DNA from: Candidatus Colwellbacteria bacterium
GTDB lineage: Bacteria > Patescibacteriota > Minisyncoccia > UBA6257 > Colwellbacteraceae
DNA: 64,000 bases
Assembly: GCA_016176525.1 (NCBI GenBank)
Contig: JACOWZ010000003.1
Span: 385,000-448,999 of the forward strand
Direction: 5' to 3'
Below, one piece after another: positions 2,469 to 49,068 of the stretch (position 1 is its first letter; every line of letters starts with the position of its first letter). Position numbers and translations under genes: made by a program. Below the pieces are notes generated by a model. It did no database searches, was not told where the DNA came from, and worked only from the letters and a program-made list of their open reading frames with translations.

Positions 2469-3158
2469 CTATGCACCAAATTTATTGAGCGGGCATTTGT
2501 CGTGTGCGTGGGGTTTTGCGGCACAGTAGGTACGGCCATAGTCTACTAGGCGATAGTTTAATTCCGGCCATTCTTTTTTAGGTAATAATTCCATAAGGTC
2601 CCGTTCAATTTTTACGGGGTTTTTGTGTGCGGAGAGCCCCAGGCGTTGTGATAGGCGCATAACGTGCGTGTCTACTGCAATGCCCTCCACAATGCCGTAT
2701 GCATTGTGTAGCACAATATTGCCGGTTTTGCGCGCTACGCCGGGGAGTTCTAAGATTTCTTCCATTGTATTTGGCACCTTGCCGCCGAATTTTTCTTTAA
2801 CAAGTTTAGCGGAGGCCAAGATATTCTTCGTTTTATTGCGATATAGGCCGATTTCTTTTACGTCTTGTTCAAACTCCTCTTGTGTTGCGTTTACATAATC
2901 ATCCAGTTTTTTATATTTCTTAAAAAGCCGCGTGGTTACTTCATTTACCTTTTTGTCTGTTGTCTGCGCGGACAAAATTGTGGCAACCAGCAATTCCCAC
3001 GGATTTTTCCAATTAATTAGTGCAACTTTTGTTCTTGGAAATAGTTTTTTTAAGATTCTTAATATCTCTTTTGCTCGCTTTTTTCTTTTTTCTATAGACA
3101 TACCCACTTTAGTTTTTATCTTTAACCTTACCTTCAACCAGGTGTTATGATCAATCAT
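2469..3158 (-). CDS. nth: Endonuclease III (DNA-(apurinic or apyrimidinic site) lyase); the true start is probably the internal Met near 3101 (MSIEKRKK...)
   Basis: HhH-GPD region (LPGVARKTGNIVL), C-terminal 4Fe-4S Cys cluster (CAAKPHAHDKCPL). The longest-ORF start lies inside the 24-bp palindrome. Confidence 0.85.
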   Translation of the reverse strand: MIDHNTWLKVRLKIKTKVGMSIEKRKKRAKEILRILKKLFPRTKVALINWKNPWELLVATILSAQTTDKKVNEVTTRLFKKYKKLDDYVNATQEEFEQDVKEIGLYRNKTKNILASAKLVKEKFGGKVPNTMEEILELPGVARKTGNIVLHNAYGIVEGIAVDTHVMRLSQRLGLSAHKNPVKIERDLMELLPKKEWPELNYRLVDYGRTYCAAKPHAHDKCPLNKFGA

Positions 3159-3164
3159 AACACC
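3141..3164. repeat. 24-bp perfect palindrome GGTGTTATGATCAATCATAACACC (copy A)
   Basis: Read directly. Identical 11-bp arms recur at 3756, 28534 and 49017; only the central 2 bp vary. Confidence 0.9.
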
Positions 3165-3421
3165 GTTCTTTCGTTTTTTAATAGTTTTATTTTAGTTCTT
3201 GTGCCGCGGTTATATCCTCCAATTTTACCATCAGAACGTATTACTCGGTGGCAGGGGATGGAGGAGTTGTAATTTTTGTTCAAAATATTGCCCACAGCCC
3301 GGGCCGCGCGCGCATTACCTGCCCGCCGCGCCACCTCTTTGTAGGTTAGAGTTTTGCCGCGCGGAATTTTCTTTACAATTGCGAGTACCCTTTCTCTAAA
3401 CCTTGTCATATTTAGAAGCAA
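3155..3421 (-). CDS. Stand-alone methylated-DNA-protein-cysteine methyltransferase DNA-binding domain protein (COG3695-like)
   Basis: 88 aa; PCHRVI active-site motif with the Cys retained; HTH-like upstream segment. It overlaps nth and truB by a few nt, so it is probably co-transcribed. Confidence 0.7.
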   Translation of the reverse strand: MLLNMTRFRERVLAIVKKIPRGKTLTYKEVARRAGNARAARAVGNILNKNYNSSIPCHRVIRSDGKIGGYNRGTRTKIKLLKNERTVL

Positions 3422-4052
3422 ATTCTTTTAGTGTTAGAGAATTGATGCGGGTGAATTTGCCGACGCGGGTGCGCTCTAGCGCAGCTAGGTAGCCGCCGAC
3501 GCCGAGCTTTGCGCCAATGTCGCGGGCAAGCGAGCGAATGTAAACACCCTTACCGGTTTTTACGCGAATTTCCAAATATGGCCACTTGTATTTAATAAGT
3601 GCAATTTTTTTAATTTCAACTGGCCTTGGTTTTAACGCAGGAGTCTTGCCTTTGCGGGCCAATTGGTAAGCACGCTTGCCTTTGAGTTTTATTGCGCTGT
3701 ACGCCGGCGGGGTTTGCATAATTTTATCCTCAAAGGTTTTTAGCACTTTCTTTACGGTGTTATGATTGATCATAACACCGGTCTCTTCACGCTGCATCGG
3801 GCCTTCTGCATCATCTGTTGCGCTTGTGTACCCAAGTTTTATTTTTGCGATGTATTCTTTATCTGCGGCTACCTGCTTTTCTAGTTTGCGAGTATATTTA
3901 CGGCTGATTGCGACAACAAGCACCCCCTTTGCTAAAGGGTCTAGCGTACCGGCATGTCCGATTCGGCGTTCGCCGGTTATTTTGCGGAGTTTGTTTATTA
4001 TGTCGTGCGAAGTAGGGCCAGTGGGCTTATAAATACCAAAAATACCTTCCAA
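3396..4052 (-). CDS. truB: tRNA pseudouridine(55) synthase TruB
   Basis: GHAGTLDPLAKGVL catalytic motif; QTPPAYSAIKLKGKRAYQLARKG region. Contains the in-frame 8-aa insert GVMINHNT encoded by the palindrome. Confidence 0.9.
   Translation of the reverse strand: MEGIFGIYKPTGPTSHDIINKLRKITGERRIGHAGTLDPLAKGVLVVAISRKYTRKLEKQVAADKEYIAKIKLGYTSATDDAEGPMQREETGVMINHNTVKKVLKTFEDKIMQTPPAYSAIKLKGKRAYQLARKGKTPALKPRPVEIKKIALIKYKWPYLEIRVKTGKGVYIRSLARDIGAKLGVGGYLAALERTRVGKFTRINSLTLKEFASKYDKV
3756..3779. repeat. 24-bp palindrome copy B (GGTGTTATGATTGATCATAACACC), in-frame inside truB
   Basis: Read directly. Confidence 0.9.
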
Positions 4053-4054
4053 AG

Positions 4055-4921
4055 CTATTGTATTTCGTAGCGTACCGTAACGTTAATTATTACTTCTTGC
4101 GAGCCCGGTTCTATAGTGGGCGCAACTTTGCCGGCTTCTTCTGCAACTGCTGCGTCAAAGGAGCGTATTGCAAAAGGCGAGTAATATCCTTCTTCTATTG
4201 ATATAATTTTACCTATCCTGAAACCCGCTGCTTTTGCAGTGGCCTCTGCCTGCACGCGAGCTTTTTCTATTGCCATAGCGCGAGCTTGGTTTTGCAACTC
4301 TGCTGGGTCGTCTATCGTAAAGTTTAGGCTGGATACTGTGTTTGCGCCGTTTTCAACCACTCCGCCCAATAATGCGCTAATTTTCTCAAAATCGCGCACT
4401 TTTACCGAAACAGTTTGGTTTATTTCGTAACCAACAATTTCTGCCGGTGGGCACACGGAGTCGTTAGTTATAACCGTGCTCTCTGCACCGCCAAATCCGC
4501 TAACGCCGCTACCCATGGGGCTAAGAATGCGCGGATAAGATGGTGTGCAGTATTGGTAACGCGGGCTTACGTTGTAGCTCTCGGTTTTTATATCTTCGCT
4601 CTTTACACCCTGTGATTTAACAAAGTCTATTGCTTTGTTTGCTTTTTCAGTGTTGGTTTGTTGAAGCTCTGCCAAATCCAAGCCGCCTTGAGTTGTTATG
4701 CTAAATGTAAATGTTGCAATGTCGGGCACTGCCACCGCTTTGCCTTCGCCAGATGCCGAAAAGCTTCTAAATGATCCCGGTTCAATTTGCTTTGCATACG
4801 AGTCAGCAAATTTTGTTGCCGCGAATGCAAACATTAATATTGCTAATATACCCACTACGCCTAGGGCGTTTTTTATATTGTTTGTCATATCGCTATTATA
4901 CCAAACTATAACGTTCACCAC
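4055..4921 (-). CDS. SIMPL/DUF541-family periplasmic protein (26 kDa periplasmic immunogenic protein-like)
   Basis: N-terminal TM/signal; KARVQAEATAKAAGFRIGKIISIEE-type SIMPL signature. Confidence 0.6.
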   Translation of the reverse strand: MVNVIVWYNSDMTNNIKNALGVVGILAILMFAFAATKFADSYAKQIEPGSFRSFSASGEGKAVAVPDIATFTFSITTQGGLDLAELQQTNTEKANKAIDFVKSQGVKSEDIKTESYNVSPRYQYCTPSYPRILSPMGSGVSGFGGAESTVITNDSVCPPAEIVGYEINQTVSVKVRDFEKISALLGGVVENGANTVSSLNFTIDDPAELQNQARAMAIEKARVQAEATAKAAGFRIGKIISIEEGYYSPFAIRSFDAAVAEEAGKVAPTIEPGSQEVIINVTVRYEIQ

Positions 4922-5664: not shown

Positions 5665-6227
5665 AAAATTGTTACAGAAGTTATGCTTACTGGTTCTTTA
5701 GGCTTTGAAATTTCTGTTGGGTTAAGAGGGTTCGGCTGGGTTTCTGCTCCGGCAATTTTGTCCACGGTTTCTAGCCCCTCTATAACATGCCCGAATATTA
5801 CATAGTTTTTAGGCAGGGGTTGGTCGGCATGCATTATAAAAAATTGGCTGCCGTTTGTATTTGGTCCGCGGTTTGCCATTGCAACTGTGCCGCGGAGGTA
5901 TTCGCCCTTAAACGGCTCGTCGGCAAAAACGTAGCCCGGCCCACCTGTGCCGTCGCCATTAGGGTCGCCGCCCTGTATCATAAATCCCGATATTACCCTG
6001 TGAAATATTGTGCCGTTGTAAAAACCCTCCCCGGCGAGTTTGATAAAATTTTCTGCCGTTTTTGGAGTTTTATCAGCGTACAATTCTATTTGTATTGTCC
6101 CTGCAGTTGTTTCTAATTGAACTACTGGGTTTGTGATTCTTGTTGTTTGCATATATAAAAGCACCGCAAGCACCGCGCCAACAAACGATAGGGCAAATGC
6201 AGCAGCGATTACTTTTTTTGTGGACAT
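5661..6227 (-). CDS. Cyclophilin-type peptidyl-prolyl cis-trans isomerase with N-terminal membrane anchor
   Basis: FHRVISGFMIQGGDP signature; N-terminal hydrophobic segment; 4-nt overlap with the UDG gene. Confidence 0.9.
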   Translation of the reverse strand: MSTKKVIAAAFALSFVGAVLAVLLYMQTTRITNPVVQLETTAGTIQIELYADKTPKTAENFIKLAGEGFYNGTIFHRVISGFMIQGGDPNGDGTGGPGYVFADEPFKGEYLRGTVAMANRGPNTNGSQFFIMHADQPLPKNYVIFGHVIEGLETVDKIAGAETQPNPLNPTEISKPKEPVSITSVTIL

Positions 6228-6258
6228 AAACCTAATTATACAACATTATAATTAAGCT

Positions 6259-7233
6259 ATGTTAATAGATGAGATAAAAATAAAAATTTCTGGTGGGGCA
6301 GGTGGCAGGGGTGCCGTGGCTTTCCAAAGAAATCTTAAGAGTTTGGGGCCGACTGGCGGGCATGGAGGGCGCGGAGGGAGAGTTTACTTTGAAGGGGTAT
6401 CGGACTTAAGCGCACTCAACCAATTTAGGTTTAAAAAAGACATTAAGGCCGAAGATGGCAAAGATGGCAGGAGCCAGTTTCGAGATGGGTCTGACGGCAG
6501 AGATTTAACCCTAAAAATTCCGGTAGGCACGATTATACACAACGTTACCAAGGGCGCTTCCTTTGAGATGTTAAAAATCGGCCAAAGGTTGCTTGCGGCC
6601 AAAGGCGGCCGGGGAGGCAGAGGTAATTTCCACTTTAGATCTTCGCGGAACACTAGCCCAAAAGAATTTGAAGAAGGCAGGGTTGGAGAAGAATTTGAAT
6701 TAAGGCTTGAATTAAAATTTATCGCAGATGTTGGCTTAGTCGGCTTCCCCAATGTTGGCAAATCAAGCTTGCTAAACGAGCTTACTAGCGCTAGAAGCAA
6801 GGTTGCAAATTATGCTTTTACAACTCTTGAGCCTAATCTAGGCGTTTATTATGAACTTATTCTTGCAGACTTGCCGGGACTTATAGAAGGCGCCTCGCGC
6901 GGCAAAGGTTTGGGCGTAAAATTCTTAAAACATATTGAGCGAACCAAGGTTATTTTTCATCTAGTTTCGGCAGACTCCGCCGACCCGGTTAAAGATTATA
7001 AAACAGTCCGCAAAGAACTGGGGCAATATAGCAAGGAACTGCTAAAAAAACGGGAGTTTTTGATGTTAGCGAAAAGCGACCTGATTGATGCAAAAAGCCA
7101 AAAGACCTTGCTTGCTAAGTTAAAAAAGCTTAATAAGTCGGCTATACATATATCTGTATACGATTGGGATAGTTTGGAAGAAGTTAAGCGTATTCTAAAC
7201 GAACTAGTTAAAGAGAAACATAATTCAGAATAA
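6259..7233 (+). CDS. obg: GTPase Obg/CgtA
   Basis: Gly-rich Obg fold N-terminus (GGAGGRGAVAFQ, GGRGGRG), G1 motif GLVGFPNVGKSSLL. Confidence 0.9.
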   Translation: MLIDEIKIKISGGAGGRGAVAFQRNLKSLGPTGGHGGRGGRVYFEGVSDLSALNQFRFKKDIKAEDGKDGRSQFRDGSDGRDLTLKIPVGTIIHNVTKGASFEMLKIGQRLLAAKGGRGGRGNFHFRSSRNTSPKEFEEGRVGEEFELRLELKFIADVGLVGFPNVGKSSLLNELTSARSKVANYAFTTLEPNLGVYYELILADLPGLIEGASRGKGLGVKFLKHIERTKVIFHLVSADSADPVKDYKTVRKELGQYSKELLKKREFLMLAKSDLIDAKSQKTLLAKLKKLNKSAIHISVYDWDSLEEVKRILNELVKEKHNSE

Positions 7234-27233: not shown

Positions 27234-28292
27234 ATGGAACTAATATTCTTTGTTGTACTCACAATTGTTTTAATTGCCGGTTTCGGCCTGATTTTTTGGA
27301 CTTTACGCGGCGGTAAAGGCGAGGCTTCTGCGGGAAACTCGCTTAACCTTATTCAAAACCAGATAAACGAGCTTAATCGCACTTTAGACTCTAAACTTGG
27401 AGAATCGGGTAAGGCAATGCGCGAGCAGTTTTCTGAAAGCGCAAAGATTATTCGCGATGTAACCGAGAAACTAACCAGGCTTGATGAAACCAACAAGCAG
27501 GTTGTTAGTTTCGCGGACCAATTAAGGAGTTTGCAAGACATATTAAAAAATCCAAAACAGCGCGGAGTATTGGGTGAGTATTATCTTGAAACGCTTCTGA
27601 AAAATGTCTTGCCGCCTGATATATACAAAATGCAATATGCTTTTAAAAATGGTGATATTGTTGACGCCGTTGTTTTTGTAGGCAGGAAATCAGATGAGAA
27701 AATTATTCCGATTGATTCCAAATTTTCTTTAGAAAATTATAATCGGTTGGTTGAGGCAGCCGATAAGTCCGAAAAAGATCGCCTTGAGAAACTTTTTGTA
27801 AATGATCTCAAAAACAGAATTGTTGAGACATCAAAATATATCCGACCGGAGGAAGGGACTACTGACTTTGCTTTTATGTTTATTCCACATGAGGCAATTT
27901 ATTACGACCTATTAATTAACAAAGTTGGCGCAGTTTTGGAGGATACGGAAAATTTAATCCAGCGGGCCGCCGGTAAATACAAGGTTTTGATAGTTTCTCC
28001 AACTTCCTTTTTGGCATACCTGCAAACTGTTTTACAAGGCTTGCGTGCACTGAAAATAGAAGAATCTGCAAAAGAGATTAGGAAGCGGGTTGAGGAATTG
28101 GGCAAGCATATGTCGAGTTACGACACATATATGCAGAAGCTTGGTGCCCACCTTGGAACATCGGTAAATATGTATTCCAACGCGTACAAAGAGTTTAAAA
28201 AAATTGATAAAGACGTTTATCGTATAACCGGAGACAAAATGAATATTGAGCCTCTTACTGTGTCTGGCCCGGATTCGGCAGAAGATGAATAA
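27234..28292 (+). CDS. rmuC: DNA recombination protein RmuC
   Basis: N-terminal TM, long coiled coil, C-terminal RmuC nuclease-like domain (FAFMFIPHEAIYYDLL). Confidence 0.85.
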   Translation: MELIFFVVLTIVLIAGFGLIFWTLRGGKGEASAGNSLNLIQNQINELNRTLDSKLGESGKAMREQFSESAKIIRDVTEKLTRLDETNKQVVSFADQLRSLQDILKNPKQRGVLGEYYLETLLKNVLPPDIYKMQYAFKNGDIVDAVVFVGRKSDEKIIPIDSKFSLENYNRLVEAADKSEKDRLEKLFVNDLKNRIVETSKYIRPEEGTTDFAFMFIPHEAIYYDLLINKVGAVLEDTENLIQRAAGKYKVLIVSPTSFLAYLQTVLQGLRALKIEESAKEIRKRVEELGKHMSSYDTYMQKLGAHLGTSVNMYSNAYKEFKKIDKDVYRITGDKMNIEPLTVSGPDSAEDE

Positions 28293-28983
28293 AGTTGGTA
28301 TACAGAAAAAGTGGAGTAAATTTAAACACCGCGTAGGGTTGTTCAATCACGTGCCTTTTGTTGATTTTGCTTTTGCGGCGGGGAGTATGGCGATGGGCTC
28401 GGCGCGCGAGGATTCGGATTTTGACGTAATAGTTGGTGCACGGCACGGCAGAATTTTTACAGTGCGCTTTTTTTCGCATTTATTTTTCGCCTTGCGCAAA
28501 TGGAGAGCAACCCATAATTCAGATTCTCACTTAGGTGTTATGATTAATCATAACACCAGATCTAAAACTGCAGATAAAATATGTTTAAATCATTTTGTAA
28601 CGCCAAAAAGCTATAAATTCTCACCGCCATATAACGAATATTGGAATAAACTGTATTCAAACCTTGTGCCCTTACTCGGAAACGAGCCGGAGATAGAAAA
28701 GTTTATAGATATGAACGATTGGGTGCGGCCGGAGAGAAAATATATGCGCAGCCCTTTCCATGAGAATTTTAAGCCATCGCGCATACGAAAGTTTTTAGAG
28801 CGCGCACTCTCCGGGCCGTTTGGAGACTATATTGAAATAAAACTAAAAGCTTTCCAGATAAAAAGGATAAAGAAAAGCGCGAGTGATCCATCACACTATA
28901 AACCGCGCATAATTTATAGCGACGACGAGCTGGAGTTCCATCCGGATACCAAGAGAATTGAAGAAATACTTACTAAAAAGTAG
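28285..28983 (+). CDS. Nucleotidyltransferase-domain protein (Pol beta superfamily); overlaps the rmuC stop by 8 nt
   Basis: GSMAMGSAREDSDFDV (GS...DxD) NTase motif; contains the in-frame GVMINHNT palindrome insert. Confidence 0.6.
   Translation: MNKVGIQKKWSKFKHRVGLFNHVPFVDFAFAAGSMAMGSAREDSDFDVIVGARHGRIFTVRFFSHLFFALRKWRATHNSDSHLGVMINHNTRSKTADKICLNHFVTPKSYKFSPPYNEYWNKLYSNLVPLLGNEPEIEKFIDMNDWVRPERKYMRSPFHENFKPSRIRKFLERALSGPFGDYIEIKLKAFQIKRIKKSASDPSHYKPRIIYSDDELEFHPDTKRIEEILTKK
28534..28557. repeat. 24-bp palindrome copy C (GGTGTTATGATTAATCATAACACC), in-frame inside the NTase gene
   Basis: Read directly. Confidence 0.9.
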
Positions 28984-29031
28984 GAATTCTAAATATGTTA
29001 CACTACTTATTAGTACCTTAGAGGTGTTCAT

Positions 29032-29637
29032 TTGAAAAACAAAGGAAGGATTATCGGATCGTCGCCGGCTGCCGACTTTAAAAATAGCACTGCGTGGGCG
29101 AATATAACTTGGCACATGCTTGATGACAAACCCTTTGGCAAACCATTTGTCGCGTCGTTCGGCTGGCGTAATGCGATGGCTTACATCTACAGTAAGACGG
29201 CATGCGACGCTCTTGTGTCGCAGTGGTGGAAGAAGAAGCGAGACCCTACAAGCCATGAAAGAAGAAATATCATTCGCCGGGAACGTCGGGACGGTTGGCG
29301 TACGGTGATGGTAAAGCTTGTTCCACTCCAGAAAGGCGAAGGCAGGCGTTCAGAAACCGACTTTTTGGGGGAAACTGGAATCGCTTGGGTGAACATTAAC
29401 ACACCCAGTCCAATCTGGCCGAACGAGAAACCGGGTGTCTGTGACGGATTCATAACAGGTGGTCCGGCAGCATTTGGCACTCGCAACGGCGCGATTGATT
29501 CCGCTATACACTGGCGCTGGTACAAGAAACGCAAGCCCACTGCCGCCGATAGGAGAAAAATTCTAGCTGGACTCCGCCGCGAAGGCTACCGCACTATTAT
29601 GGTAAAACTTGTGCTGGTAAAGCCACTTGAGCCTTAG
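29032..29637 (+). CDS. Hypothetical Trp/Arg-rich protein with an internal duplication; higher GC than its surroundings
   Basis: Two homologous halves ending ...WWKKKRDPTSHERRNIIRRERRDGWRTVMVKLV and ...WYKKRKPTAADRRKILAGLRREGYRTIMVKLV; about 50% GC. Confidence 0.5.
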   Translation: MKNKGRIIGSSPAADFKNSTAWANITWHMLDDKPFGKPFVASFGWRNAMAYIYSKTACDALVSQWWKKKRDPTSHERRNIIRRERRDGWRTVMVKLVPLQKGEGRRSETDFLGETGIAWVNINTPSPIWPNEKPGVCDGFITGGPAAFGTRNGAIDSAIHWRWYKKRKPTAADRRKILAGLRREGYRTIMVKLVLVKPLEP

Positions 29638-29660
29638 GAAAATTCCTAAGGCTTTTTATT
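29631..29660 (+). terminator. Rho-independent terminator (GCCTTAGG-loop-CCTAAGGC + TTTTTATT)
   Basis: Read directly, overlapping the stop of the upstream ORF. Confidence 0.6.
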
Positions 29661-29731
29661 AAAATGGTTTGACAATTAAGTCTTAGAGTTATATTCTCTC
29701 GACCAGAACCCTAAAAATAGGAGGAATTGAA

Positions 29732-30115
29732 TTGGTTCAAAAAGTAAAACTCAGAGTTCCTAGGGCTGCAGAATATTCTGCTATTATGGGGACTCTAAAA
29801 GCGCTAAGCAACGAAACCAGATGCATGTTGCTGGCACTACTTCTTAAGGCCGGCAAAGACGGCCTACGTACGAATGAGCTTGCGAGTAAGGCTGGGATAT
29901 CGCAAAGTCTTACTACTAAACACTTGATGCCACTTACGCAGACACTCTTAGTTGTTAACTATGTTAAGAAGATTAAGGGTGAGCGTCCCATTGCGAGCAT
30001 TTACTATGCATCTACAGAGGGTGAAAAGTGGTTCCGCAAGCTTCGATTCTTGCAAGATGGCGGCGTTTTACTCCCTCTTCTTCCTGAAATCCAAAAGATA
30101 GCCTCACGAACGTGA
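29732..30115 (+). CDS. Winged-helix transcriptional regulator (ArsR-like), TTG start
   Basis: AGGAGG SD 7 nt upstream of TTG; NETRCMLLALLLKAG...LRTNELASKAGISQSLTTKHL HTH. Confidence 0.5.
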   Translation: MVQKVKLRVPRAAEYSAIMGTLKALSNETRCMLLALLLKAGKDGLRTNELASKAGISQSLTTKHLMPLTQTLLVVNYVKKIKGERPIASIYYASTEGEKWFRKLRFLQDGGVLLPLLPEIQKIASRT

Positions 30116-30126
30116 GGTTTTTTTAT
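30102..30126 (+). terminator. Rho-independent terminator (CCTCAC-GAAC-GTGAGG + T-run)
   Basis: Read directly. Confidence 0.55.
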
Positions 30127-30173
30127 TCTTTTTTCACTAGCCACTAATCACTAGTCGCTATATACTTATTTCT

Positions 30174-32321
30174 ATGTTACTAAAGCGCTTGGAATTACAG
30201 GGGTTTAAGTCTTTTGCCGAGAAGACCGTTTTGGATTTAAACACACCCGTTACAGCAGTTGTTGGTCCGAATGGCAGCGGCAAATCTAATGTGACGGATG
30301 CCATCCGCTGGCTTTTAGGCGAGCGCGAAGCGCGCCATTTGCGGGGCGCAAAGGTAGAAGACTTAATCTTTGCAGGCACCGAAAAAAAGGCCCGCATGGG
30401 CCAAGCTCAGGCGACGCTAATCTTGGATAATTCGTCTGGTTATTTCCCCGTTGAATATGCAGAAGTGTCTGTTTCGCGCAAAATAAACCGTGACGGGGAT
30501 TCGCAGTTTTTTATAAACAAATCCGAAGTGCGGCTTAAAGATATTTTAGACTTTTTTGCAAAAACTCGCGTGGGTGCTAGGGGGCTTACAATAATTAGCC
30601 AGGGCGATAGCGATATGTTTTTGCGCGCGACCCCGGAAGAAAGGCGGGAGATGATGGAAGAAGTTTTGGGCCTAAAAGAGTACCAGTTGCGCAAAACAGA
30701 GAGTGAAAAGAGGCTTAAGACTACGCTTGAGAACTTAGACAAAGCCTCTGCTCTTATAGAAGAGATAAAGCCGCATATGCGGTTTTTGAAAAAGCAGGTG
30801 TCGCGCTACGAGAGCCGTGAGGTGCTATCGCACGAGCTAATGGATTTGGAGAATAATTTTTATGGCAAGAGGTTAAAAGTTTTTAGAACAGAGACTAAAA
30901 ATCTTAACACGCAAAGAGAATTGTTGGAGGCGGATATAAAACGCGAGGAAGCGAACTATAAAGAGCTTGAAGAGAATTTAAACAAAATTAAGGAGAGCGA
31001 ACCGAAAGAGGAAAAGGCAGTGGAAACCGATGATAAAGAGCGTGAAAAACTTTTGGCGCGCAGATCTGAGCTATCGCGCAGCTTCGGCAAAATTGAGGCG
31101 CAGTTAGAATTTGAAGCGGGGCAAAGAGCTGTTAAGAACGCCGGCGTAGACTTCGCCGCGCTTTTAAAGGAAGTAAGGGAAGTTGCGTACGCGCTGTTGC
31201 AAGAAACTGAAATCCAAAATATTTATACAAAGCTAGGTACTATTGTCAAAAAAATAGACGAAATTTTTACAGATGGCGATAAAGCGCAGAGCAAGGCTCT
31301 TATTGAGGCGCAAAATAAATTAGCAGGGGAGCTTGCCCGACTAGACAAAGAGATTAAAGATATAACGAAGCGTGAAGAAGAAGAGCGCTCACGCATGCTA
31401 AGTTTTAGTAAAGACTTTACCGATGCTTACGAAAAAGCGGAAATGCAGAGAAAAAAACTGGAGAGTGTCAAACAAGAAAAACAGAAAACTCAGTTTGCGA
31501 TAGAAAAAGTAGAGCTTCAGACGTCTAACTTAAAAGAAGAGTTAAGCCAGATTGGGCGCACACTTGAATCTATTGAAAATTTTGCAGTTACCGAGATTAG
31601 TGCTTTAGATGAAAATACTGCAATAAAACGCATGTATCGTCTGCGTGGAGAGCTGGCGGGTATTGGCGAGTTGGATGAAAATCTACTTAAAGAAGCGCGC
31701 GAGACTGAAGAAAGGCACACATTCTTAACTTCGCAGGTAGAAGATTTGCAAAAAGCCACAAACGACCTAAAAACTCTTATAAAAGAACTTGATGAGAAAA
31801 TTAAGCACGATTTTACGGATGCGCTAAAGTCAATAAACAACGAGCTAACAAGTTTTATGACTCTTATGTTCGGCGGAGGCAGAGCGAAACTTGTGGCGAA
31901 GCAACTAAATAACGAAATAATAGAGCAACAAAATAACAAGACAGATGTAGAAGATAGCCGGATTGGTATAGATGTTGAGTTGTCTTTGCCGCGCAAGCGC
32001 CTAAAGGGGCTCGAAGTGCTCTCTGGGGGCGAGAGGGCGCTTGTTTCTGTGTCAATACTTTTTGCCCTTATTTCTGTTAGCCCGCCGCCGTTTTTGGTGC
32101 TTGATGAGGTTGACGCACCCCTTGATGAGGCAAATGCCAAGAGGTTTAGCAATATTATTCGCGATATGTCTAAAAAAACGCAGTTTATTATTGTTACGCA
32201 CAACCGCGCAACTATGGAAGCTGCAGACTTTCTGTATGGAGTTACTATGGGGGCAGATGGCGCTTCGCGTGTTTTGTCACTAAAGTTGGAGGCGGCAAAA
32301 GAAGCTGTTGCGGCGGCATAG
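30174..32321 (+). CDS. smc: SMC-family chromosome segregation ATPase, unusually short (715 aa)
   Basis: N-terminal Walker A VVGPNGSGKSN; C-terminal LSGGERALVSVSILFAL signature with FLVLDEVDAPLD Walker B; coiled-coil middle; conserved synteny upstream of rpsP. Confidence 0.8.
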   Translation: MLLKRLELQGFKSFAEKTVLDLNTPVTAVVGPNGSGKSNVTDAIRWLLGEREARHLRGAKVEDLIFAGTEKKARMGQAQATLILDNSSGYFPVEYAEVSVSRKINRDGDSQFFINKSEVRLKDILDFFAKTRVGARGLTIISQGDSDMFLRATPEERREMMEEVLGLKEYQLRKTESEKRLKTTLENLDKASALIEEIKPHMRFLKKQVSRYESREVLSHELMDLENNFYGKRLKVFRTETKNLNTQRELLEADIKREEANYKELEENLNKIKESEPKEEKAVETDDKEREKLLARRSELSRSFGKIEAQLEFEAGQRAVKNAGVDFAALLKEVREVAYALLQETEIQNIYTKLGTIVKKIDEIFTDGDKAQSKALIEAQNKLAGELARLDKEIKDITKREEEERSRMLSFSKDFTDAYEKAEMQRKKLESVKQEKQKTQFAIEKVELQTSNLKEELSQIGRTLESIENFAVTEISALDENTAIKRMYRLRGELAGIGELDENLLKEARETEERHTFLTSQVEDLQKATNDLKTLIKELDEKIKHDFTDALKSINNELTSFMTLMFGGGRAKLVAKQLNNEIIEQQNNKTDVEDSRIGIDVELSLPRKRLKGLEVLSGGERALVSVSILFALISVSPPPFLVLDEVDAPLDEANAKRFSNIIRDMSKKTQFIIVTHNRATMEAADFLYGVTMGADGASRVLSLKLEAAKEAVAAA

Positions 32322-32360
32322 AGTTGACAGAGAGACGGTATAATGTAAGATATACCAACA

Positions 32361-32738
32361 ATGTTAGCTATTAAATTAAGAAATGTTGGCAAAAAACATC
32401 AGAGGTCTTTTAGGTTTATCGTAAAAGAAAAAAGATCTAAGGTGCAAGGCAAGTTTATAGAAGATTTAGGCTGGTACAATCCGAGTACCGATAAGTTTGA
32501 AGTAAACAAAGACCGCGCGGTGTATTGGTTGGGCGTTGGTGCAAAGCCGACTATGACTGTTGCACAGATCTTAAAGAAGTCCGGAGTTAAATTGCCAGAG
32601 GGCATTAAGACTTCTAGAACTTATTCTATAAAGAAGAAAGAGGAGGAGAAAAAGGAAGGGGTGGCTAAACCCGAAGCAGTTAACACTGCAGCAGAAACAA
32701 AACCAGAAGAACAGAAAAAGGTCGAGGAGAAAAAATAA
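32361..32738 (+). CDS. rpsP: 30S ribosomal protein S16 with Lys/Glu-rich C-terminal extension
   Basis: MLAIKLRNVGKKHQRSFRFIV...GWYNP...WLGVGAKPT matches S16. Confidence 0.9.
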   Translation: MLAIKLRNVGKKHQRSFRFIVKEKRSKVQGKFIEDLGWYNPSTDKFEVNKDRAVYWLGVGAKPTMTVAQILKKSGVKLPEGIKTSRTYSIKKKEEEKKEGVAKPEAVNTAAETKPEEQKKVEEKK

Positions 32739-32759
32739 TCAGAAATTCTAAAATCAGAA

Positions 32760-33104
32760 ATGGCAGTTGAGCAAGATGAAAAGTTTTTGGAGTTTGTAGT
32801 AAAGTCCATCGTTGACAATCCAGACGATGTAAAAATTGAAAGGAAAGTTGACGAAATGGGAGTGCTACTCACTCTAAAGGTGAACTCTAAGGATATGGGG
32901 CAGGTTGTTGGCCGCGAGGGCAACACAGCCAAGTCTATTCGCTCGCTTCTGCGCATAGTTGGCATTAAGCACAATGCCCGCGTTAATTTAAAGATTGACG
33001 AGCCGGATGGCGGCAGAGGTCCGAAACCAAGAGAAGAAAAGTCAGCGGACACCAACTTGGGTTCAGTCAATAAAGTGATTGAAGATATAAAAGATGTAGA
33101 ATAA
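32760..33104 (+). CDS. KH-domain RNA-binding protein (YlqC/UPF0109-like)
   Basis: GQVVGREGNTAKSIRSLL KH GXXG-type motif; positioned between rpsP and trmD as in Firmicutes. Confidence 0.8.
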   Translation: MAVEQDEKFLEFVVKSIVDNPDDVKIERKVDEMGVLLTLKVNSKDMGQVVGREGNTAKSIRSLLRIVGIKHNARVNLKIDEPDGGRGPKPREEKSADTNLGSVNKVIEDIKDVE

Positions 33105-33109
33105 AAAAA

Positions 33110-33136
33110 CCGCCCCCACCGGGGCGGTTTTTTTTA
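33110..33136 (+). terminator. Rho-independent terminator (CCGCCCC-CACC-GGGGCGG + T8)
   Basis: Read directly. Confidence 0.7.
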
Positions 33137-33151
33137 TACTATAATACTATT

Positions 33152-33820
33152 ATGCAATTTGATGTAATAACCCTATTCCCAAAGGTTTTAGAGCCGTATT
33201 TAAATGAATCTATTTTGGGCCGGGCGGTTAGGAATAACTTAATAACCGTAAAACTACATAACCTACGTAACTTTAGCAGAGATAAACACAAGAAAGTTGA
33301 TGATAGGCAGTATGGCGGCGGGCCGGGGATGGTATTGCAAATTAAACCTATAATAACTGCGGTAACAAAGGTAACAGTCAGCAAAGTAACAAATAAACCT
33401 AAAGTAATTATTTTTTCGGCGGCTGGTAAGCAATTTGATGACAAAATGGCGCGGAGATTTGCAAAGGAGAAAAGCTTAGTGCTTGTCGCCGGCCGGTATG
33501 AGGGAATTGACGCGCGTGTACTGAAAATATTAAAAGACCAAGGTTATAAAGCAGAAGAAGTTTCTATTGGTCCATATATACTAACTGGCGGGGAGATTCC
33601 TGCGCTTGCTGTGATTGATGCGGTAGCTCGCAAGATTCCCGGAGTACTGGGCAAAAGCGAATCCTTGGAAGAAAAGCGTTTTGGCGCAGGCGTGCCGGTT
33701 TACACACGGCCAGAGGTATTTGAGTATAAGGGTAAAAAGTACAGGGTGCCTAATGCGCTTTTATCTGGGCACCATAAGAAGATAGAGGAATGGCGCACCA
33801 AAAAGCGCAAATTGACCTAA
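33152..33820 (+). CDS. trmD: tRNA (guanine37-N1)-methyltransferase TrmD
   Basis: MQFDVITLFP N-terminus, GRYEGIDARV, ILTGGEIPALAVIDAVAR SPOUT motifs. Confidence 0.9.
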   Translation: MQFDVITLFPKVLEPYLNESILGRAVRNNLITVKLHNLRNFSRDKHKKVDDRQYGGGPGMVLQIKPIITAVTKVTVSKVTNKPKVIIFSAAGKQFDDKMARRFAKEKSLVLVAGRYEGIDARVLKILKDQGYKAEEVSIGPYILTGGEIPALAVIDAVARKIPGVLGKSESLEEKRFGAGVPVYTRPEVFEYKGKKYRVPNALLSGHHKKIEEWRTKKRKLT

Positions 33821-33852
33821 TTTGTAAATTGATATAGTATTATCCATACTTT

Positions 33853-34686
33853 ATGGTTAAAAAAGATACAGCTTTGGAGAACGAAGTTTCGGACGATGTA
33901 AAATCTGCAGAGTCCGAAATCGCGCTTACATCCGACGAAGAGAATCAAATTCGCCAAATGGTTGAGGCCGGGGTTTTTTATGGATTTTCAAAATCCAAAA
34001 CGAACCCAAAGATGAAGCCGTATATCTTGTCTAACAGGTCTGGAGTAGAAATTATTGATTTGCGGCAGACTATGCATTTTTTGCAGACTGCGGCTCTTGC
34101 TATAAAAGAAAAAATTGCAACTGGGGCTAAGGTACTTTTCGTTGGCACAACGCCTTCAGCTAGAAGCTTTGCTAAGGCATTTGCGGAACGCAATGGTATG
34201 CCCTATGTTGCAGAGCGCTGGCTTGGCGGCACCCTTACTAACTTTAAGACTATCTCTGAACGCATAAAGTATTTTAGAAAACTTAAAGAAGACAAGGCGG
34301 GTGGCAAACTGCAAAAATATACAAAAAAAGAAAGATTAGAAATAGATGAAGAGCTTATAAAACTAGAAAGGCTCTTTAAAGGAATTGACGAAATGGATCA
34401 ATTGCCGGGTATGCTTGTAATAACCGATACCGTGCAAGAGGTGACTGCAGTTAGAGAAGCGCGTAAAGTTAAAATTCCGTCTGTTGGTTTTGTAAATACG
34501 AATGGCGACCCGAAAGCGGTTAATTACCCTGTGCCCATGAACAACAGAAATCCCAAGAGTGTAGAGTTTATGTTTTCTTATCTTGAAAAATTTGTTGAGG
34601 AAGGTAAGCGAGATGCAGAGACTAAATTGCGAAAAGAGGCTATACAAGCATCAAAACGAGACGAAGGAACAAGGGAAAATGTTTAA
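33853..34686 (+). CDS. rpsB: 30S ribosomal protein S2
   Basis: AGVFYGF...KMKPYIL N-terminus, [10 protein letters not shown] motif; followed by tsf. Confidence 0.85.
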
Positions 34687-34688
34687 AA

Positions 34689-35135
34689 ATGTTTAAGGCA
34701 GAAGACGTCCAAAAACTTAGAGCCCAAACCGGCGCCGGTGTTATGGAGTGCAAACGCGCCCTAGAAGATGCTGCTGGTGATTTTGATAGGGCTGTGGAGT
34801 TAATACAAGAAAGAGGGTTTACTAAGGCAGAGAAAAGAGCAGGCAGGTCTGCAAGTGCTGGGTTGGTGCACTCTTACGTGCACAACGGTAGGGTTGGCGT
34901 GCTTTTGGAGTTGAATTGTGAAACGGACTTTGTTGCTAAAAACGAAGAGTTTAAAAATCTTGCACACGAGCTTGTAATGCAAATCGCAGCTATGAATCCG
35001 CAAGATGATAAAGAGTTTTTAGAACAGGAATATATTAAAGACAGCTCAATTACAATTAAAGCGCTTATAAAAAGCGCAATAGCAAAAATAGGAGAGAATA
35101 TTAAAGTAGGCAGGTTTATCCGTTACGAGTTATAA
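34689..35135 (+). CDS. tsf: Elongation factor Ts (short form)
   Basis: [33 protein letters not shown]-like N-terminus; dimerisation core. Confidence 0.85.
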
Positions 35136-35142
35136 TAACTTT

Positions 35143-35439
35143 ATGTACGATTTGTTTTTGCAGCTTGCGCTTATGTTTTCCCTTGGAGCTATAGTTTATT
35201 TAGTAACTATTGCTGTGCCGCGCGTTAAAGGCGGCGAGGAGTCTAGTCCTGTAAACGGCATTCTTTCTAAAGTGCCGTTACACAGGGTGGATAGCGCGAT
35301 AAGTAAATATCGCGACAAGTTTTTAAGAAGGCTTAAGGTTCTAATAATGAAGGCCGACAATATTGTCGGCAAGCGGCTACAGAAAGACAAAGACAGCGAC
35401 AACTTGAAAAATGGCTCCGATTCGCCTAAATTAGAATAG
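35143..35439 (+). CDS. Small membrane protein, hypothetical
   Basis: 98 aa, N-terminal TM. Confidence 0.35.
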   Translation: MYDLFLQLALMFSLGAIVYLVTIAVPRVKGGEESSPVNGILSKVPLHRVDSAISKYRDKFLRRLKVLIMKADNIVGKRLQKDKDSDNLKNGSDSPKLE

Positions 35440-35449
35440 CTGGAAATAA

Positions 35450-35533
35450 GGGCAGATGGCGGAGTGGTCAATCGCACGACGCTGTAAACGTCGCGGCTTT
35501 ATGCCTACGCAGGTTCGAATCCTGCTCTGCCCA
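35450..35533 (+). tRNA. tRNA-Tyr (GTA), long variable arm, no encoded CCA
   Basis: Acceptor GGGCAGA/TCTGCCC, anticodon loop CTGTAAA, variable arm ~14 nt, T-arm GCAGGTTCGAATCCTGC. Confidence 0.8.
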
Positions 35534-35684
35534 CAAATCAAAAATGGATTGTCTTGCGCAATCCTATTTTTGATTTATGATGGTTAGATTAAGACAGGAT
35601 TCGAAGACCGCAGCGAAATCCGCCAGCTGGCGGATGAGCGAGGGGCGGCCTGCGAGCGCGACGAGCGACGGCGAGGAGCGACTT

Positions 35685-35709
35685 GTAGGAGAATCCTGCT
35701 CTGCCCACA
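35685..35709 (+). repeat. Direct duplicate of the tRNA-Tyr 3' end (GTAGGAGAATCCTGCTCTGCCCACA)
   Basis: 19 of 19 nt identical to tRNA-Tyr positions ~35515-35533 plus flanking similarity. Confidence 0.8.
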
Positions 35710-35740
35710 GTTCGACTCTATGGAACCGTAATATAACTCT

Positions 35741-36331
35741 ATGACCAAACGTACTAAAAAGATTATTGATTTTTTGTACGAGATCGAGAAATTCAAACTC
35801 GTTGAAAGGCGGACATATTTGTCGAATCAAAAGAGGCATGAATCTGATGCCGAGCATGAGTGGCATATGGCGATGATGATTTGGCTTTTCTCAACTGTTA
35901 TAAAGAAAAAGTTTGATGTGTTTCATGCGATGAAACTCGCACTTGTGCATGACTTGCCGGAGATTTATGCAGGGGATACGTATAGGTTCGATCCTAAAGG
36001 CAATAATACAAAGAGAGCGCGTGAGGTGAAGGCGGCTCGCAAACTCTTTGCTCAACTACCTAAAGATTTAGATAAAGAATTCTGGGCGCTCTGGGATGAG
36101 TACGAAGAAAATAAAACTTATGAGGCTAGAATTGTGCATTTCGTTGATGGAACAAATCCAGGTATTCAGAATATGGTTTCAAAAGCCAAAGCATGGAAAG
36201 AGAATAAATTAGATAGGAAAAGCGTATTCAAGAGGAGAGATGAATTGCTTCAATATATCGACAGCAAAGAACTTAAGGATTGGCTCAATTCGTTAGTTGA
36301 TGAAGCTGTAAAAAAGAAGTATCTTATTTAA
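35741..36331 (+). CDS. HD-domain phosphohydrolase (YfbR-like 5'-deoxynucleotidase)
   Basis: ESDAEHEWHMAMM...LALVHDLPEIYAGD HD motifs. Confidence 0.8.
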   Translation: MTKRTKKIIDFLYEIEKFKLVERRTYLSNQKRHESDAEHEWHMAMMIWLFSTVIKKKFDVFHAMKLALVHDLPEIYAGDTYRFDPKGNNTKRAREVKAARKLFAQLPKDLDKEFWALWDEYEENKTYEARIVHFVDGTNPGIQNMVSKAKAWKENKLDRKSVFKRRDELLQYIDSKELKDWLNSLVDEAVKKKYLI

Positions 36332-36339
36332 GTAATTTT

Positions 36340-36411
36340 GCCGCCCTAGCTCAACGGCAGAGCAACTCTTTTGTAAAGAGTAGGTTGGGGGTTCGATTCC
36401 TCTGGGCGGCT
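36340..36411 (+). tRNA. tRNA-Thr (TGT)
   Basis: Acceptor GCCGCCC/GGGCGGC, anticodon loop TTTGTAA, T-loop TTCGATT; the T-stem has two G-U pairs. Confidence 0.7.
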
Positions 36412-36415
36412 CAAA

Positions 36416-36754
36416 ATGCCAAAGCAGGAGTTAATAAATTTAGAGCCAGAGAAACCATCTATAACAAAACTTAAAGAGGCTATATTTTCTTCTCCTGAAA
36501 AAATAGAGAGCGAGCTTGCTAAGGGCGGCAATGATTGGCTTGCTTGTTTTACAACAAGAGTGCAGGTTATAGAGGCGCTTTTTGGAAGCGCAATTAATGA
36601 TTTAGACGAGAGCGAAGACACGCGTTATAAAGAAAATATAGATTCGCTCAAAAAACATTTAGAAGAAGTTAGAGGGCGCTATCCTGTAGATGAAGAAGAT
36701 CCGCCGAAATATATAAAGAGCGAGCTTTTAGGTATGCTGGATATTTTGCACTGA
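36416..36754 (+). CDS. Hypothetical protein
   Basis: 112 aa acidic ORF between two tRNA-Thr genes. Confidence 0.4.
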   Translation: MPKQELINLEPEKPSITKLKEAIFSSPEKIESELAKGGNDWLACFTTRVQVIEALFGSAINDLDESEDTRYKENIDSLKKHLEEVRGRYPVDEEDPPKYIKSELLGMLDILH

Positions 36755-36779
36755 AGCATTTAGAATGTATTTACGCTTC

Positions 36780-36852
36780 GCCAATGTAGCTCAGTCGGTA
36801 GAGCAACTCCATGGTAAGGAGTAGGTCGCCGGTTCAATTCCGGCCATTGGCT
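36780..36852 (+). tRNA. tRNA-Thr (GGT)
   Basis: Acceptor GCCAATG/CATTGGC, anticodon loop ATGGTAA, T-arm GCCGGTTCAATTCCGGC. Confidence 0.8.
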
Positions 36853-36993
36853 CAAAATACAAAAGCATATCTTTATATTGATGGCCGAATTGAACCGTGG
36901 AAAGGGGTCGGGAAAACTAGTTTTCCCGTTGCGGAAATATTAAAACCGCAGGGTTTTAAAGAGCGAGTTGCTGTATAGCGACTCGCGACGTGA

Positions 36994-37012
36994 AATTCCG
37001 ACCATTGGCTCA
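36994..37012 (+). repeat. Direct duplicate of the tRNA-Thr(GGT) 3' end (AATTCCGACCATTGGCTCA, 1 mismatch)
   Basis: Read directly; an inverted partial T-arm copy lies at ~36881-36898. Confidence 0.75.
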
Positions 37013-37057
37013 AGGTTTGCGTTTTTTGGCATTCTAGTTTAATATTTTCTAACTCTT

Positions 37058-37231
37058 ATGGCAGTTAGGAAATTATCAGAAAACTTAATAAGGCTCCGAT
37101 GTGCCACCTGTAAGCGGGTTAATTACTATACGCGTAAGAATAAGAAAAAGGTGGAGCGAAAGCTGGATTATAAAAAGTTTTGTAACTGGTGCAGAAAGAG
37201 CACTACTCACAAAGAAGTAAAACTTAAGTAG
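37058..37231 (+). CDS. rpmG: 50S ribosomal protein L33 (zinc-ribbon form)
   Basis: 57 aa, missed by the ORF track; CATCKRVNYYTRKNKKK...FCNWCRKSTTHKEVK fits the L33 C4 pattern. Confidence 0.8.
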   Translation: MAVRKLSENLIRLRCATCKRVNYYTRKNKKKVERKLDYKKFCNWCRKSTTHKEVKLK

Positions 37232-37234
37232 TTT

Positions 37235-37855
37235 GTGACAAAAGAGAAATTAATTGAAGGCTTAATTTCTGCAGAATATCTTAAAACTTCGCGTATAATA
37301 GAGGCGTTTCGCGCGGTTGATAGGGCAGATTTTGTGCCCAAAGAATATCAGAGCGAAGCCTACGGCAATTATCCGTTGTCGATAGGCGAGGGGCAGACGA
37401 TATCTCAACCACTTACCGTGGCTTTTATACTGGAGCTGCTCCAACCGCAGATAGGTGATAAGGTTTTAGATGTCGGCGCTGGGTCTGGCTGGCAGACTGC
37501 ACTTATAGCCTATTGTGTTGGCGAGAAAGGTAAAGTTGTTGCTGTTGAAAGGATTAAGAGTCTTAAAGATATGGCGGATAGTAATATTAAAAAATATCCG
37601 AAACTCGCAAAACGCGCAGAAGTTATTTTGGGTGACGGTTCAAAAGGGTATAAGCCCGGTGCCCCATACGACAAAATTATAGCTGCGGCTTCTGGCGAGG
37701 ATATGCCAGACGCCTGGAGGGCGCAGCTTAAGATCCACGGACGCATTGTCGCCCCGGTGCAGAACAGTATTGTAGTGTGGGATAAGATTGATGATAAGCA
37801 ATTTAAAAAACAAGAGTATAGCGGTTTTAGTTTTGTGCCTCTCATTCGCGAATAG
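37235..37855 (+). CDS. pcm: Protein-L-isoaspartate O-methyltransferase (GTG start)
   Basis: SAM-binding VLDVGAGSGWQTAL; GEGQTISQP motif. Confidence 0.85.
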   Translation: MTKEKLIEGLISAEYLKTSRIIEAFRAVDRADFVPKEYQSEAYGNYPLSIGEGQTISQPLTVAFILELLQPQIGDKVLDVGAGSGWQTALIAYCVGEKGKVVAVERIKSLKDMADSNIKKYPKLAKRAEVILGDGSKGYKPGAPYDKIIAAASGEDMPDAWRAQLKIHGRIVAPVQNSIVVWDKIDDKQFKKQEYSGFSFVPLIRE

Positions 37856-37980
37856 ACAAGTCCTATACCTTTGTTTAGAATTATTGTTGGCGGTGGGTAA
37901 ATACTCACTCATACATATTAGGAGGCATTTCCCGCCGCCTTCTAGGCAACTAAAATTTTAACCTTAAACTATTAAACATA

Positions 37981-38298
37981 ATGACTATAAATATAACTGC
38001 TAACGATTTGGATTTAACTCCTGCGTTTAAAGAATTTATTGAATCTAAAGTAGGCGCGCTAAACAAATTCGTAGAAAGATTTGATGGGGATAGCCTAATC
38101 ACAAATGTTGTGGTTTCTCGCACTACAGCGCACCACAGGCACGGCGAAGTGTTTGATGCCAAAATTGATATTGGCTTGCCTGGCTCGATTATAAGAGCTG
38201 CTGCAATAGCACCTGATGCGAGAACCGCTGTTTTAGATGCTTGTAAAAAACTTGAACGCGAGATTGAGAAGTATAAGACTAAGATTGGCTCGCGATGA
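37981..38298 (+). CDS. hpf: Ribosome hibernation promoting factor / RaiA (short form)
   Basis: S30EA-family pattern; immediately upstream of secA with 4-nt overlap. Confidence 0.8.
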
Positions 38299-40832: not shown

Positions 40833-40870
40833 CGCAATATTTCAATATTTAAACATTTAAATATTTAAAA

Positions 40871-41191: not shown

Positions 41192-41231
41192 TCTTCGATA
41201 TTGAAATATATAAATATTTAAAAATCTAAAC

Positions 41232-41684: not shown

Positions 41685-41701
41685 TATTTAAAGATTTAAA
41701 T

Positions 41702-42591: not shown

Positions 42592-42598
42592 AAGTATT

Positions 42599-43012: not shown

Positions 43013-43015
43013 AAA

Positions 43016-43435: not shown

Positions 43436-43450
43436 ATTTTGTAACTGATT

Positions 43451-48998: not shown

Positions 48999-49016
48999 GC
49001 TTTAATTCACATTGCA

Positions 49017-49040: not shown

Positions 49041-49068
49041 ACTGTATCAGCACATCATTTATGAATAT

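Follow-up and report, generated by a model that had tools for sequence, protein, structure and literature searches.

Background

Rickettsia palindromic elements (RPE) are roughly 100-150 bp long, and selfish repeats are usually lineage-specific and decaying. Perfect palindromes also occur as parS-type sites, which number a few per genome and often lie inside genes. The operators of TrpR and HisR (YerC) are 20-bp palindromes, that of TrpR being TGTAcTnGTnnACnAgTACA, and hisR is often autoregulated (PMC9413887). The present analysis dealt with a 24-bp palindrome at positions 3756-3779 of a 64,000-nucleotide stretch of DNA from a Candidatus Colwellbacteria bacterium (contig JACOWZ010000003.1, positions 385,000 to 448,999 of the forward strand), which is called the window below and means the whole stretch at its full length. 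The palindrome lies in frame inside truB, the gene of the conserved enzyme TruB, and an earlier reading of this DNA, the original prediction, had taken it for a selfish insertion. Comparison with related loci suggests, on balance, that the palindrome copies the site recognised by a helix-turn-helix (HTH) protein of the TrpR family, which is conserved in Patescibacteria and uncharacterised.

The palindrome and its copies in the window

The palindrome at 3756-3779, GGTGTTATGATTGATCATAACACC, consisted of two 11-nt arms around a 2-nt centre, and one extra C/G pair extended it to 3755-3780. The general form of the 24-base palindrome was GGTGTTATGAT-NN-ATCATAACACC, with a 20-bp core of TGTTATGAT-NN-ATCATAACA. 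A scan with up to 3 mismatches showed a total of four copies in the window (3141, 3756, 28534 and 49017), not two, against a chance expectation of 0.00 for 24-mer matches in 100 shuffles at the same tolerance. All four copies were perfect at 22 of 22 specified positions. No degenerate copies with 1-3 mismatches beyond the centre were found in the 64-kb window, the 11-nt half-site was found solely within the four palindromes with no isolated half-sites, and alignment of the four copies with their 50-nt flanks showed nothing shared, no direct repeat and no target-site duplication. On either strand, frame 1 alone was open, and frames 2 and 3 contained TGA or TAA.

The central observation of the original prediction, that the identical 24-bp palindrome lies in frame in two unrelated intact genes, was confirmed. 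The copy at 3756-3779 was read as GVMINHNT in the intact truB open reading frame (ORF), and the perfect palindrome at 28534-28557, in a gene for a nucleotidyltransferase (NTase)-like protein, was also read as GVMINHNT. The observation is real and was partly mis-described, as the TruB results below show.

Three independent Logan assemblies were 100% identical to the window in their overlap with it. The truB copy was not an assembly artefact, because it was spanned by two Logan assemblies from separate SRA runs. A total of 71 kb of the Colwellbacteria genome was read, comprising the 64-kb window and 7.4 kb from Logan contigs, and the added 7.4 kb contained no new palindrome site. Logan contigs from three runs ended within about 22 bp of one another; L063 and L067 ended just beyond the window start (position 1), while L063 and L064 ended at window position 4943. 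These shared ends may be assembly breakpoints caused by repeats or strain variation.

Sites of the same family in other genomes

The 20 specified bases, GTGTTATGAT..ATCATAACAC, were present exactly in seven species-representative genomes (four of Saccharibacteria, one of Liptonbacteria, and one hit each in Clostridiaceae and in a Bacteroidales metagenome-assembled genome [MAG]) and in 48 metagenome stretches with a G+C content of 24-58%. Nearly all of these copies were intergenic, and ten different centres were observed (CA, TG, TA, GC, AT, AC, GT, AG, CT and AA). The genes facing the sites were those for the TrpR-like regulator, clpB (twice), tRNA synthetases, pilin-like genes, ackA, uvrD, tsaE, gatC, lepA and nth; no functional theme was found among them, and no amino-acid biosynthesis regulon was evident. 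A phage origin was rejected, with 0 matches in 2.9 million viral contigs.

A full-text literature search for the palindrome and its halves returned unrelated primer matches only, a search of the literature on palindromes and operators of Patescibacteria and the candidate phyla radiation returned nothing relevant, and the searchable literature had no mention of the TrpR-like protein subfamily or its motif. At gathering thresholds, Rfam reported only tRNAs in the window, and only tRNAs and one tmRNA in ten related loci.

Two further arrangements were observed in other genomes. On contigs of 24-35% G+C, the palindrome GTGTTATGATGCATCATAACAC was followed on one side by a conserved module of about 95 nt, TTTAAGTTGAAGAAATATTTTTTTCATAATTCATAATTC...GAGATTGCTTCG (L014, L019, L023-L025, L030, L032, L042, L046, L051, L054 and L055), and the opposite side had at least five different sequences. 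The module, for which Rfam gave no match, may represent an extended repeat, a leader or a small RNA. Different subtypes of the site (TGTTATGAT, CTATGAC and CTATGCT/CTATGTT) also stood in tandem within single intergenic regions, from a few bases to about 70 bp apart (L010 173-243; L052 707-830; L002 315-351; L043 1289-1325), an arrangement that recalls mosaic REP clusters or a set of sites for paralogous regulators.

Palindromes around a TrpR-family gene

The protein whose gene accompanied the sites was about 140 aa long (135-150 aa) and matched Pfam Trp_repressor PF01371 at an E value of 3e-8, with scores of 34.1 and 31.3 bits against a gathering score of 27. It aligned with helices C-E of E. 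coli TrpR and fell below the NCBIfam cut-offs for TrpR and YerC. It also had a YxSRKEWExxCW region at the N-terminus and ended in a basic tail, GRP...KYGTVY, that was AT-hook-like. The family had at least 545 members, and the named sources were mostly Patescibacteria (Wolfebacteria, Paceibacterota and Jorgensenbacteria).

Loci were of two kinds: metagenome stretches found by motif search (motif-first) and six loci fetched by protein alone, which were unbiased for the motif (protein-first). Among the motif-first loci, a site stood 3-11 nt after the stop codon of the TrpR-family gene in L011, L027, L035 and L045, and a site was also present upstream of the gene in L011, L035 and L045, L027 being too short to show this side. 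Among the protein-first loci, palindromes of the family stood on both sides of the gene in 6 of 6; 18 sites lay no more than 700 bp from the gene, and the other 111.6 kb contained a single site. When all loci, which came from other Patescibacteria, were taken together, a site followed the stop codon by 2-44 nt in 11 of 11, and a site preceded the ATG by 17-92 nt in all 10 loci with upstream sequence, around a TrpR-like gene that was single-copy. A -10-like hexamer started exactly 8 nt past the 16-bp core in six of the seven loci with a nearby upstream site, and 5 nt past it in the seventh. One contig (L034) carried two TrpR-like paralogues (1812-2246 and about 6006-6392), with the recognition helices SPQTI and SSQTV, respectively, and the first alone was surrounded by palindromes, in five copies.

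Protein and site varied together. Each genome carried one core variant, which was TGTTATG(A/C)T-NN-A(T/G)CATAACA, (R)CTATGCT-AT-AGCATAG or (R)CTATGAC-AT-GTCATAG. Proteins with the recognition helix SLQTI were paired with TGTTATG-type sites (6/6), and those with SPQTI were paired with (R)CTATG-type sites (5/5). In L034, the five sites that ringed the SPQTI paralogue were CTATGCTATAGCATAG, and a GGTGTTATGATCAATCATAACACC site, identical to the window 24-mer, lay 900 bp away. The position that is Leu or Pro in these helices aligned with Ile79 of E. coli TrpR, the Ile in GIATITR. Ile79 is one of six DNA-contacting residues of TrpR (PMC9413887).

Two side observations were made in other loci. About 220 bp upstream of a Wolfebacteria TrpR-like gene (L058 9780-9817) lay a 38-bp perfect palindrome of TTAGTTAAC units, which we take to resemble CTAGTTAACTAG, the core of the trp operator in E. 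coli. In L060 (5473-7641), an intein carrying a LAGLIDADG endonuclease domain (Pfam) split a gene of the phage-integrase family.

The palindrome within TruB

The truB gene (3396-4052, minus strand) encoded 218 aa and was intact, with the catalytic domain only and no PUA domain (Pfam TruB_N, E 3e-46); the 218-aa ORF was 100% identical to the annotated TruB of a Candidatus Colwellbacteria MAG. TruB here and its Patescibacteria homologues were about 218 aa long without a C-terminal PUA domain, whereas solved bacterial TruB proteins of about 300 aa have one. The palindrome copy (3756-3779, centre TG on the plus strand) was read on the minus strand as GGT GTT ATG ATC AAT CAT AAC ACC, that is GVMINHNT, residues 92-99 of TruB, within the stretch ...EETGVMINHNTVK....

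The original prediction held that the palindrome adds exactly 8 residues to TruB, and this part failed. The linker from TDDxEG to QxPP was 28 aa long, the same length as in 82 of 117 homologues (the mode; minimum 27 aa). A 21-sequence alignment of the query and 20 homologues had no gap at the palindrome segment, which fell in the variable linker, and in phmmer the region was gap-free against M. tuberculosis TruB (1sgv), with a single-residue gap against T. maritima TruB. The AlphaFold2 (AF2) model of TruB had a mean predicted local distance difference test score (pLDDT) of 87.2 and a predicted template modelling score (pTM) of 0.83. Foldseek superposed the 218-aa model on solved TruB structures over 217-221 alignment columns at template modelling (TM) scores of 0.88-0.90. 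Because the length of TruB is canonical, the 24 bp occupy 8 codon positions that already existed.

The placement of the segment in a variable part of TruB was supported. It lay in the most variable linker, and in the AF2 model, where the palindrome block had a pLDDT of about 87, residues 92-96 were in a loop (89-96) and residues 97-99 formed the start of a helix (97-105). The structural check proposed with the original prediction, made here with the AF2 model and solved TruB structures, placed the segment in a loop and a helix N-terminus, with the invariant residues intact. All invariant TruB residues, including Asp38 of GTLDP, were kept in the alignment, so truB is not a pseudogene; the good AF2 model and the fold match to solved TruB led to the same rejection. 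By alignment and model, TruB probably remains functional. The candidate routes by which the 24 bp may have entered truB with its length unchanged are an insertion with a compensating deletion, a short templated replacement, and stepwise selection.

Copies in the NTase-like gene, at the ogt-like/nth junction and before lepA

The NTase-like gene (28285-28983, plus strand) encoded a conserved Patescibacteria hypothetical protein of 232 aa from the annotated start, with a weak match, below the cut-off, to a Pol-beta nucleotidyltransferase domain (Pfam PF18765, E 3.8e-4). The protein was 100% identical to P0121, had 383 homologues and kept the invariant residues. Its palindrome, GGTGTTATGATTAATCATAACACC (28534-28557, centre TA), was read on the plus strand. 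The loop that contained it was 35 aa long, compared with a mode of 24 aa and 26-28 aa in the nearest homologues, and was thus about 8 aa longer than the nearest. A net gain of 8 aa in this loop is plausible from the alignment, though not certain, as the loop varies from 21 to 49 aa among homologues. Asp-Lys-Ile stood 5-9 codons past the palindrome in both coding copies (FEDKIMQ in TruB, 3732-3739; TADKICL in the NTase-like protein, 28575-28582). The DNA at both places was GATAAAAT, with a -10-like TAAAAT, which is probably a coincidence of two conserved protein motifs.

The copy at 3141-3164 (centre CA) lay at the junction of an ogt-like gene and nth. The ogt-like gene (3155-3421, minus strand) encoded 88 aa, a methylguanine-DNA methyltransferase DNA-binding domain (Pfam PF01035, E 5.6e-30, profile positions 2-80 of 81), and its stop codon was within the palindrome, which on the minus strand supplied the terminal Val-Leu-TGA. 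The copy also stood about 39-40 nt before the probable start (MSIEKRKK) of nth, the endonuclease III gene (2469-3101, minus strand). ORF callers extended nth to 3158 through the ATG inside the palindrome, 19 codons early, to give a 229-aa product beginning MIDHNTW... (Logan gene call). False starts at the palindrome ATG were also seen in ackA of L009 ('MMHHNTY') and in L029 and L004. A promoter scan matched TGTTATGAT of the 3141 copy to an extended -10 element on both strands.

The copy at 49017-49040 (centre CA) lay in a 70-bp gap between a DUF4012 gene (stop at 48998) and lepA (49069-50820, plus strand; ATG at 49069), directly downstream, and ended 28 nt before lepA; the GTPase motifs AHVDHGKST and DTPGH were present in the lepA translation. 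Along the window, AT skew was negative up to about 28 kb, positive from there to about 44 kb (window 28001-44000) and negative again beyond, with positive GC skew throughout, and these switches probably reflect gene-strand blocks.

Proposed recognition by a TrpR-family protein

If the palindrome is a copy of the site of the TrpR-family protein, a dimer would read the two half-sites of the 20-bp core TGTTATGAT-NN-ATCATAACA, leaving the central 2 bp free. At the protein's own gene, the spacing of the 16-bp core from the -10-like hexamer would provide the geometry of autorepression, and the second site would always stand past the stop codon. The Colwellbacteria copies before lepA and nth, together with those inside two genes, would be further sites of the same kind. 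In truB, the site would take 8 codons of the variable linker with the length unchanged, and it would be tolerated because its single open frame encodes a loop and a helix cap. The bracketing of the gene and the pairing of helix with core variant lend indirect support to binding of the site by the protein, which may act as a regulator; this Colwellbacteria genome would then encode a TrpR-family protein of its own.

Several results weigh against this reading. The TrpR-like gene was found neither in the 64-kb window nor in the 7.4 kb beyond it. The window copies lacked the strict geometry of core, 8 nt and -10 hexamer, and two of the four were intragenic, which is odd for operators. Copies that match at all 22 of 22 positions, where weaker ones are absent, carry much more information than regulation would require in a genome of 0.65 Mb, a pattern that resembles copying more than sites that evolved independently. 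The candidate target genes were heterogeneous. The covariation of SLQTI and SPQTI proteins with their sites was confounded by phylogeny, with two clades. Elsewhere, about 20% of sites had 7-11 extra flanking bp that were complementary yet not conserved, and in L056, L059, L060 and L061 sites lay between convergent genes. Neither the complementary flanks nor the sites between convergent genes are accounted for by a simple double-stranded operator. They point to a role as hairpin or terminator, or else to additional half-sites nested at an offset of 8 bp (L061, L034).

Other explanations

The strongest competitor, though an unlikely one, is a selfish or mobile mini-palindrome of the RPE, REP (repetitive extragenic palindromic) or miniature inverted-repeat transposable element (MITE) type, which would copy itself and survive where its sole open frame lands in a tolerant loop. 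That identical 24-mers stand at four unrelated positions, and that ORFs read two of them in that frame, agrees with such an element, as does the NTase-like loop that exceeds its nearest homologues by about 8 aa. None of 240 TruB or NTase-like homologues carried the encoded peptide, and the acquisitions are recent on that account. The outer GG was the same in 8 of 8 window half-sites while it varied at sites beside TrpR-like genes elsewhere, and on the low-G+C contigs the palindrome was joined to the module of about 95 nt in several contexts. On the other hand, TruB had no net insertion, the copies had no target-site duplication or conserved flank, and neither degenerate copies nor solo half-sites were present. 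The density was low: the 71 kb read here had 4 copies, and in other genomes the 112 kb outside the surroundings of the regulator gene had 1. The same 20 bases were exact across contigs whose G+C content ranged over 24-58%, Saccharibacteria and Liptonbacteria genomes among them. No partner of the transposase type emerged, the associated protein having an HTH only. The original prediction had called the identical in-frame repeats a hallmark of selfish palindromic elements; the two in-frame copies and the NTase-like loop speak for this, but the absence of duplicated targets, shared flanks and decayed copies, the broad G+C range and the link to a TrpR-family gene speak against it.

A less probable explanation is a hairpin formed in RNA or single-stranded DNA, serving for example to terminate transcription, to stabilise mRNA ends or to mark a processing site, in which the conserved bases would be the top of the stem and the loop. 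Flanks beyond the core at sites elsewhere were complementary at 42% of positions compared with 31% in permutations (z = 7.5), and about 10 sites carried 7-11 further pairs, unrelated in sequence and in some cases including tracts of A and T (L012, L048). G-T pairs were present in the extension in L008 and L037. Predicted hairpins were stable (delta G -13.5 to -26 kcal/mol), some copies in other genomes looked terminator-like, and the site past the TrpR-like stop codon was present in 11 of 11 loci, including cases with a convergent next gene. The window copies, however, had no extended stem, with only 0-2 of 8 flanking positions paired, and no Rfam family was reported at the sites. The upstream sites stood 8 nt before -10-like boxes and for that reason are probably not transcribed. 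Hybrid half-sites, with GAT in one arm and GCT in the other (L058), fit a protein tolerant of A or C better than a stem, and in L061 and L034 some extensions consisted of additional TATG half-sites, offset by 8 bp, and not of freely covarying bases. For the window copies, the terminator reading was rejected after scans of 2900-4100 and 48800-49300 (the 28534 copy lying outside them): the flanks were unpaired, and the sole terminator-like call was at 3141 on the plus strand, where the genes are on the minus strand, with none around 49017. No G+C-rich stem with a T run on the transcribed strand was found at the scanned copies.

The uniformity of the window copies bears on another minority view. 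They look like copies of one another, because they were perfect at 22 positions and shared the outer GG/CC that is variable elsewhere, and the longer NTase-like loop, the 240 homologues free of the peptide and the uniform outer GG/CC suggest that some copying process lies behind them. A tentative account of this, of about the same low probability as the hairpin, is a family of repeats whose dispersal depends on a TrpR-type DNA-binding protein with no catalytic activity, resembling REPIN-RAYT without a transposase. Within this account, new copies would arise by short-patch templated replacement and by insertion, which would explain the overwriting in truB, the 8 apparently added codons in the NTase-like gene, the uniformity within genomes and the covariation between genomes. 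The mobile element and the hairpin were both kept as rivals because of the copy uniformity, the intragenic copies, the complementary flanks and the route of entry into truB.

A chromosome-organisation or uptake site (parS, matS or DNA uptake sequence/uptake signal sequence [DUS/USS] type) that fell in coding DNA is very improbable: the outer TGTT...AACA presumably recalls parS, but the sequence differs from the parS consensus, ParB-domain and ParA-type genes were present in only 1 of 6 protein-first loci (L059) at 3-5 kb from the sites, and the sites cluster around the TrpR-family gene. An uptake sequence was rejected, as the 11-nt half-site was confined to the four palindromes and never stood alone, unlike DUS/USS, and the palindrome is not a single, high-density motif. 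To our knowledge, none of the Fur, Zur, NrdR, LexA, DnaA and parS boxes matches it in spacing or sequence.

Implications

Regulation in Patescibacteria is almost uncharted, and a widespread, unnamed TrpR-family protein is now paired with a defined family of palindromic sites, a pairing that is directly testable. A conserved enzyme gene can hold such a site at no cost in length, so that the same DNA carries both protein code and a binding-site-like motif. The palindrome also calls for caution in annotation, since it offers ATG in one frame and TGA or TAA in the others and thereby creates false N-terminal extensions (nth; ackA in L009) and a real stop codon in the ogt-like gene. If copies do spread by overwriting DNA, which is a minority possibility, the mechanism would be a new way of spreading short palindromes.

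Comparison with known repeat and operator systems

RPE resemble the palindrome in that a palindromic repeat lies in frame in conserved intact genes and maps to a surface segment. They differ in that the repeat here is 24 bp long, made no net insertion in TruB, has no decayed members, and is conserved as a motif across distant genomes and tied to a DNA-binding protein gene. Many diverged copies of about 100 bp or more would be expected of RPE-like elements, while four perfect copies of 24 bp were found; likewise, the TruB linker of 28 aa equalled the mode of 117 homologues, and the NTase-like loop alone fits a gain of 8 aa. The flanks of the four copies, having no shared sequence or direct repeat, do not resemble those of MITEs.

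The REP/REPIN elements with their REP-associated tyrosine transposase (RAYT) share more features. In both systems, a single-copy gene has short palindromes on either side, further ones lie elsewhere in the genome, each genome has a homogeneous variant, and different types stand in tandem in one intergenic region, as in bacterial interspersed mosaic elements (BIMEs). The bracketed gene here, however, encodes an HTH protein with no HUH/Y1 catalytic domain, a TrpR-family protein of 135-150 aa whose similarity to transposases is at the level of the HTH only. Moreover, the copy number here appears low, and the perfect palindromes lie inside genes as well as outside them.

The closest likeness was to the TrpR/HisR operators. 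The half-site sequence here is unlike the TrpR and HisR half-sites, the protein belongs to a divergent unnamed subfamily about 40 aa longer, and the palindrome family has no evident amino-acid biosynthesis regulon. Further differences are the site past the stop codon in every locus, the extended complementary flanks at many sites and the copies in coding sequences. What is shared is a 20-bp perfect or near-perfect palindrome with TGT...ACA ends, laid out as two half-sites around a free, non-specific centre; a site in the regulator's own promoter region in the other genomes, which would imply autoregulation; and an associated protein that passes the Pfam Trp_repressor gathering score and aligns with TrpR helices C-E. 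By this comparison, the best-supported analogy is that the palindrome would work most like an operator of the TrpR/HisR type.

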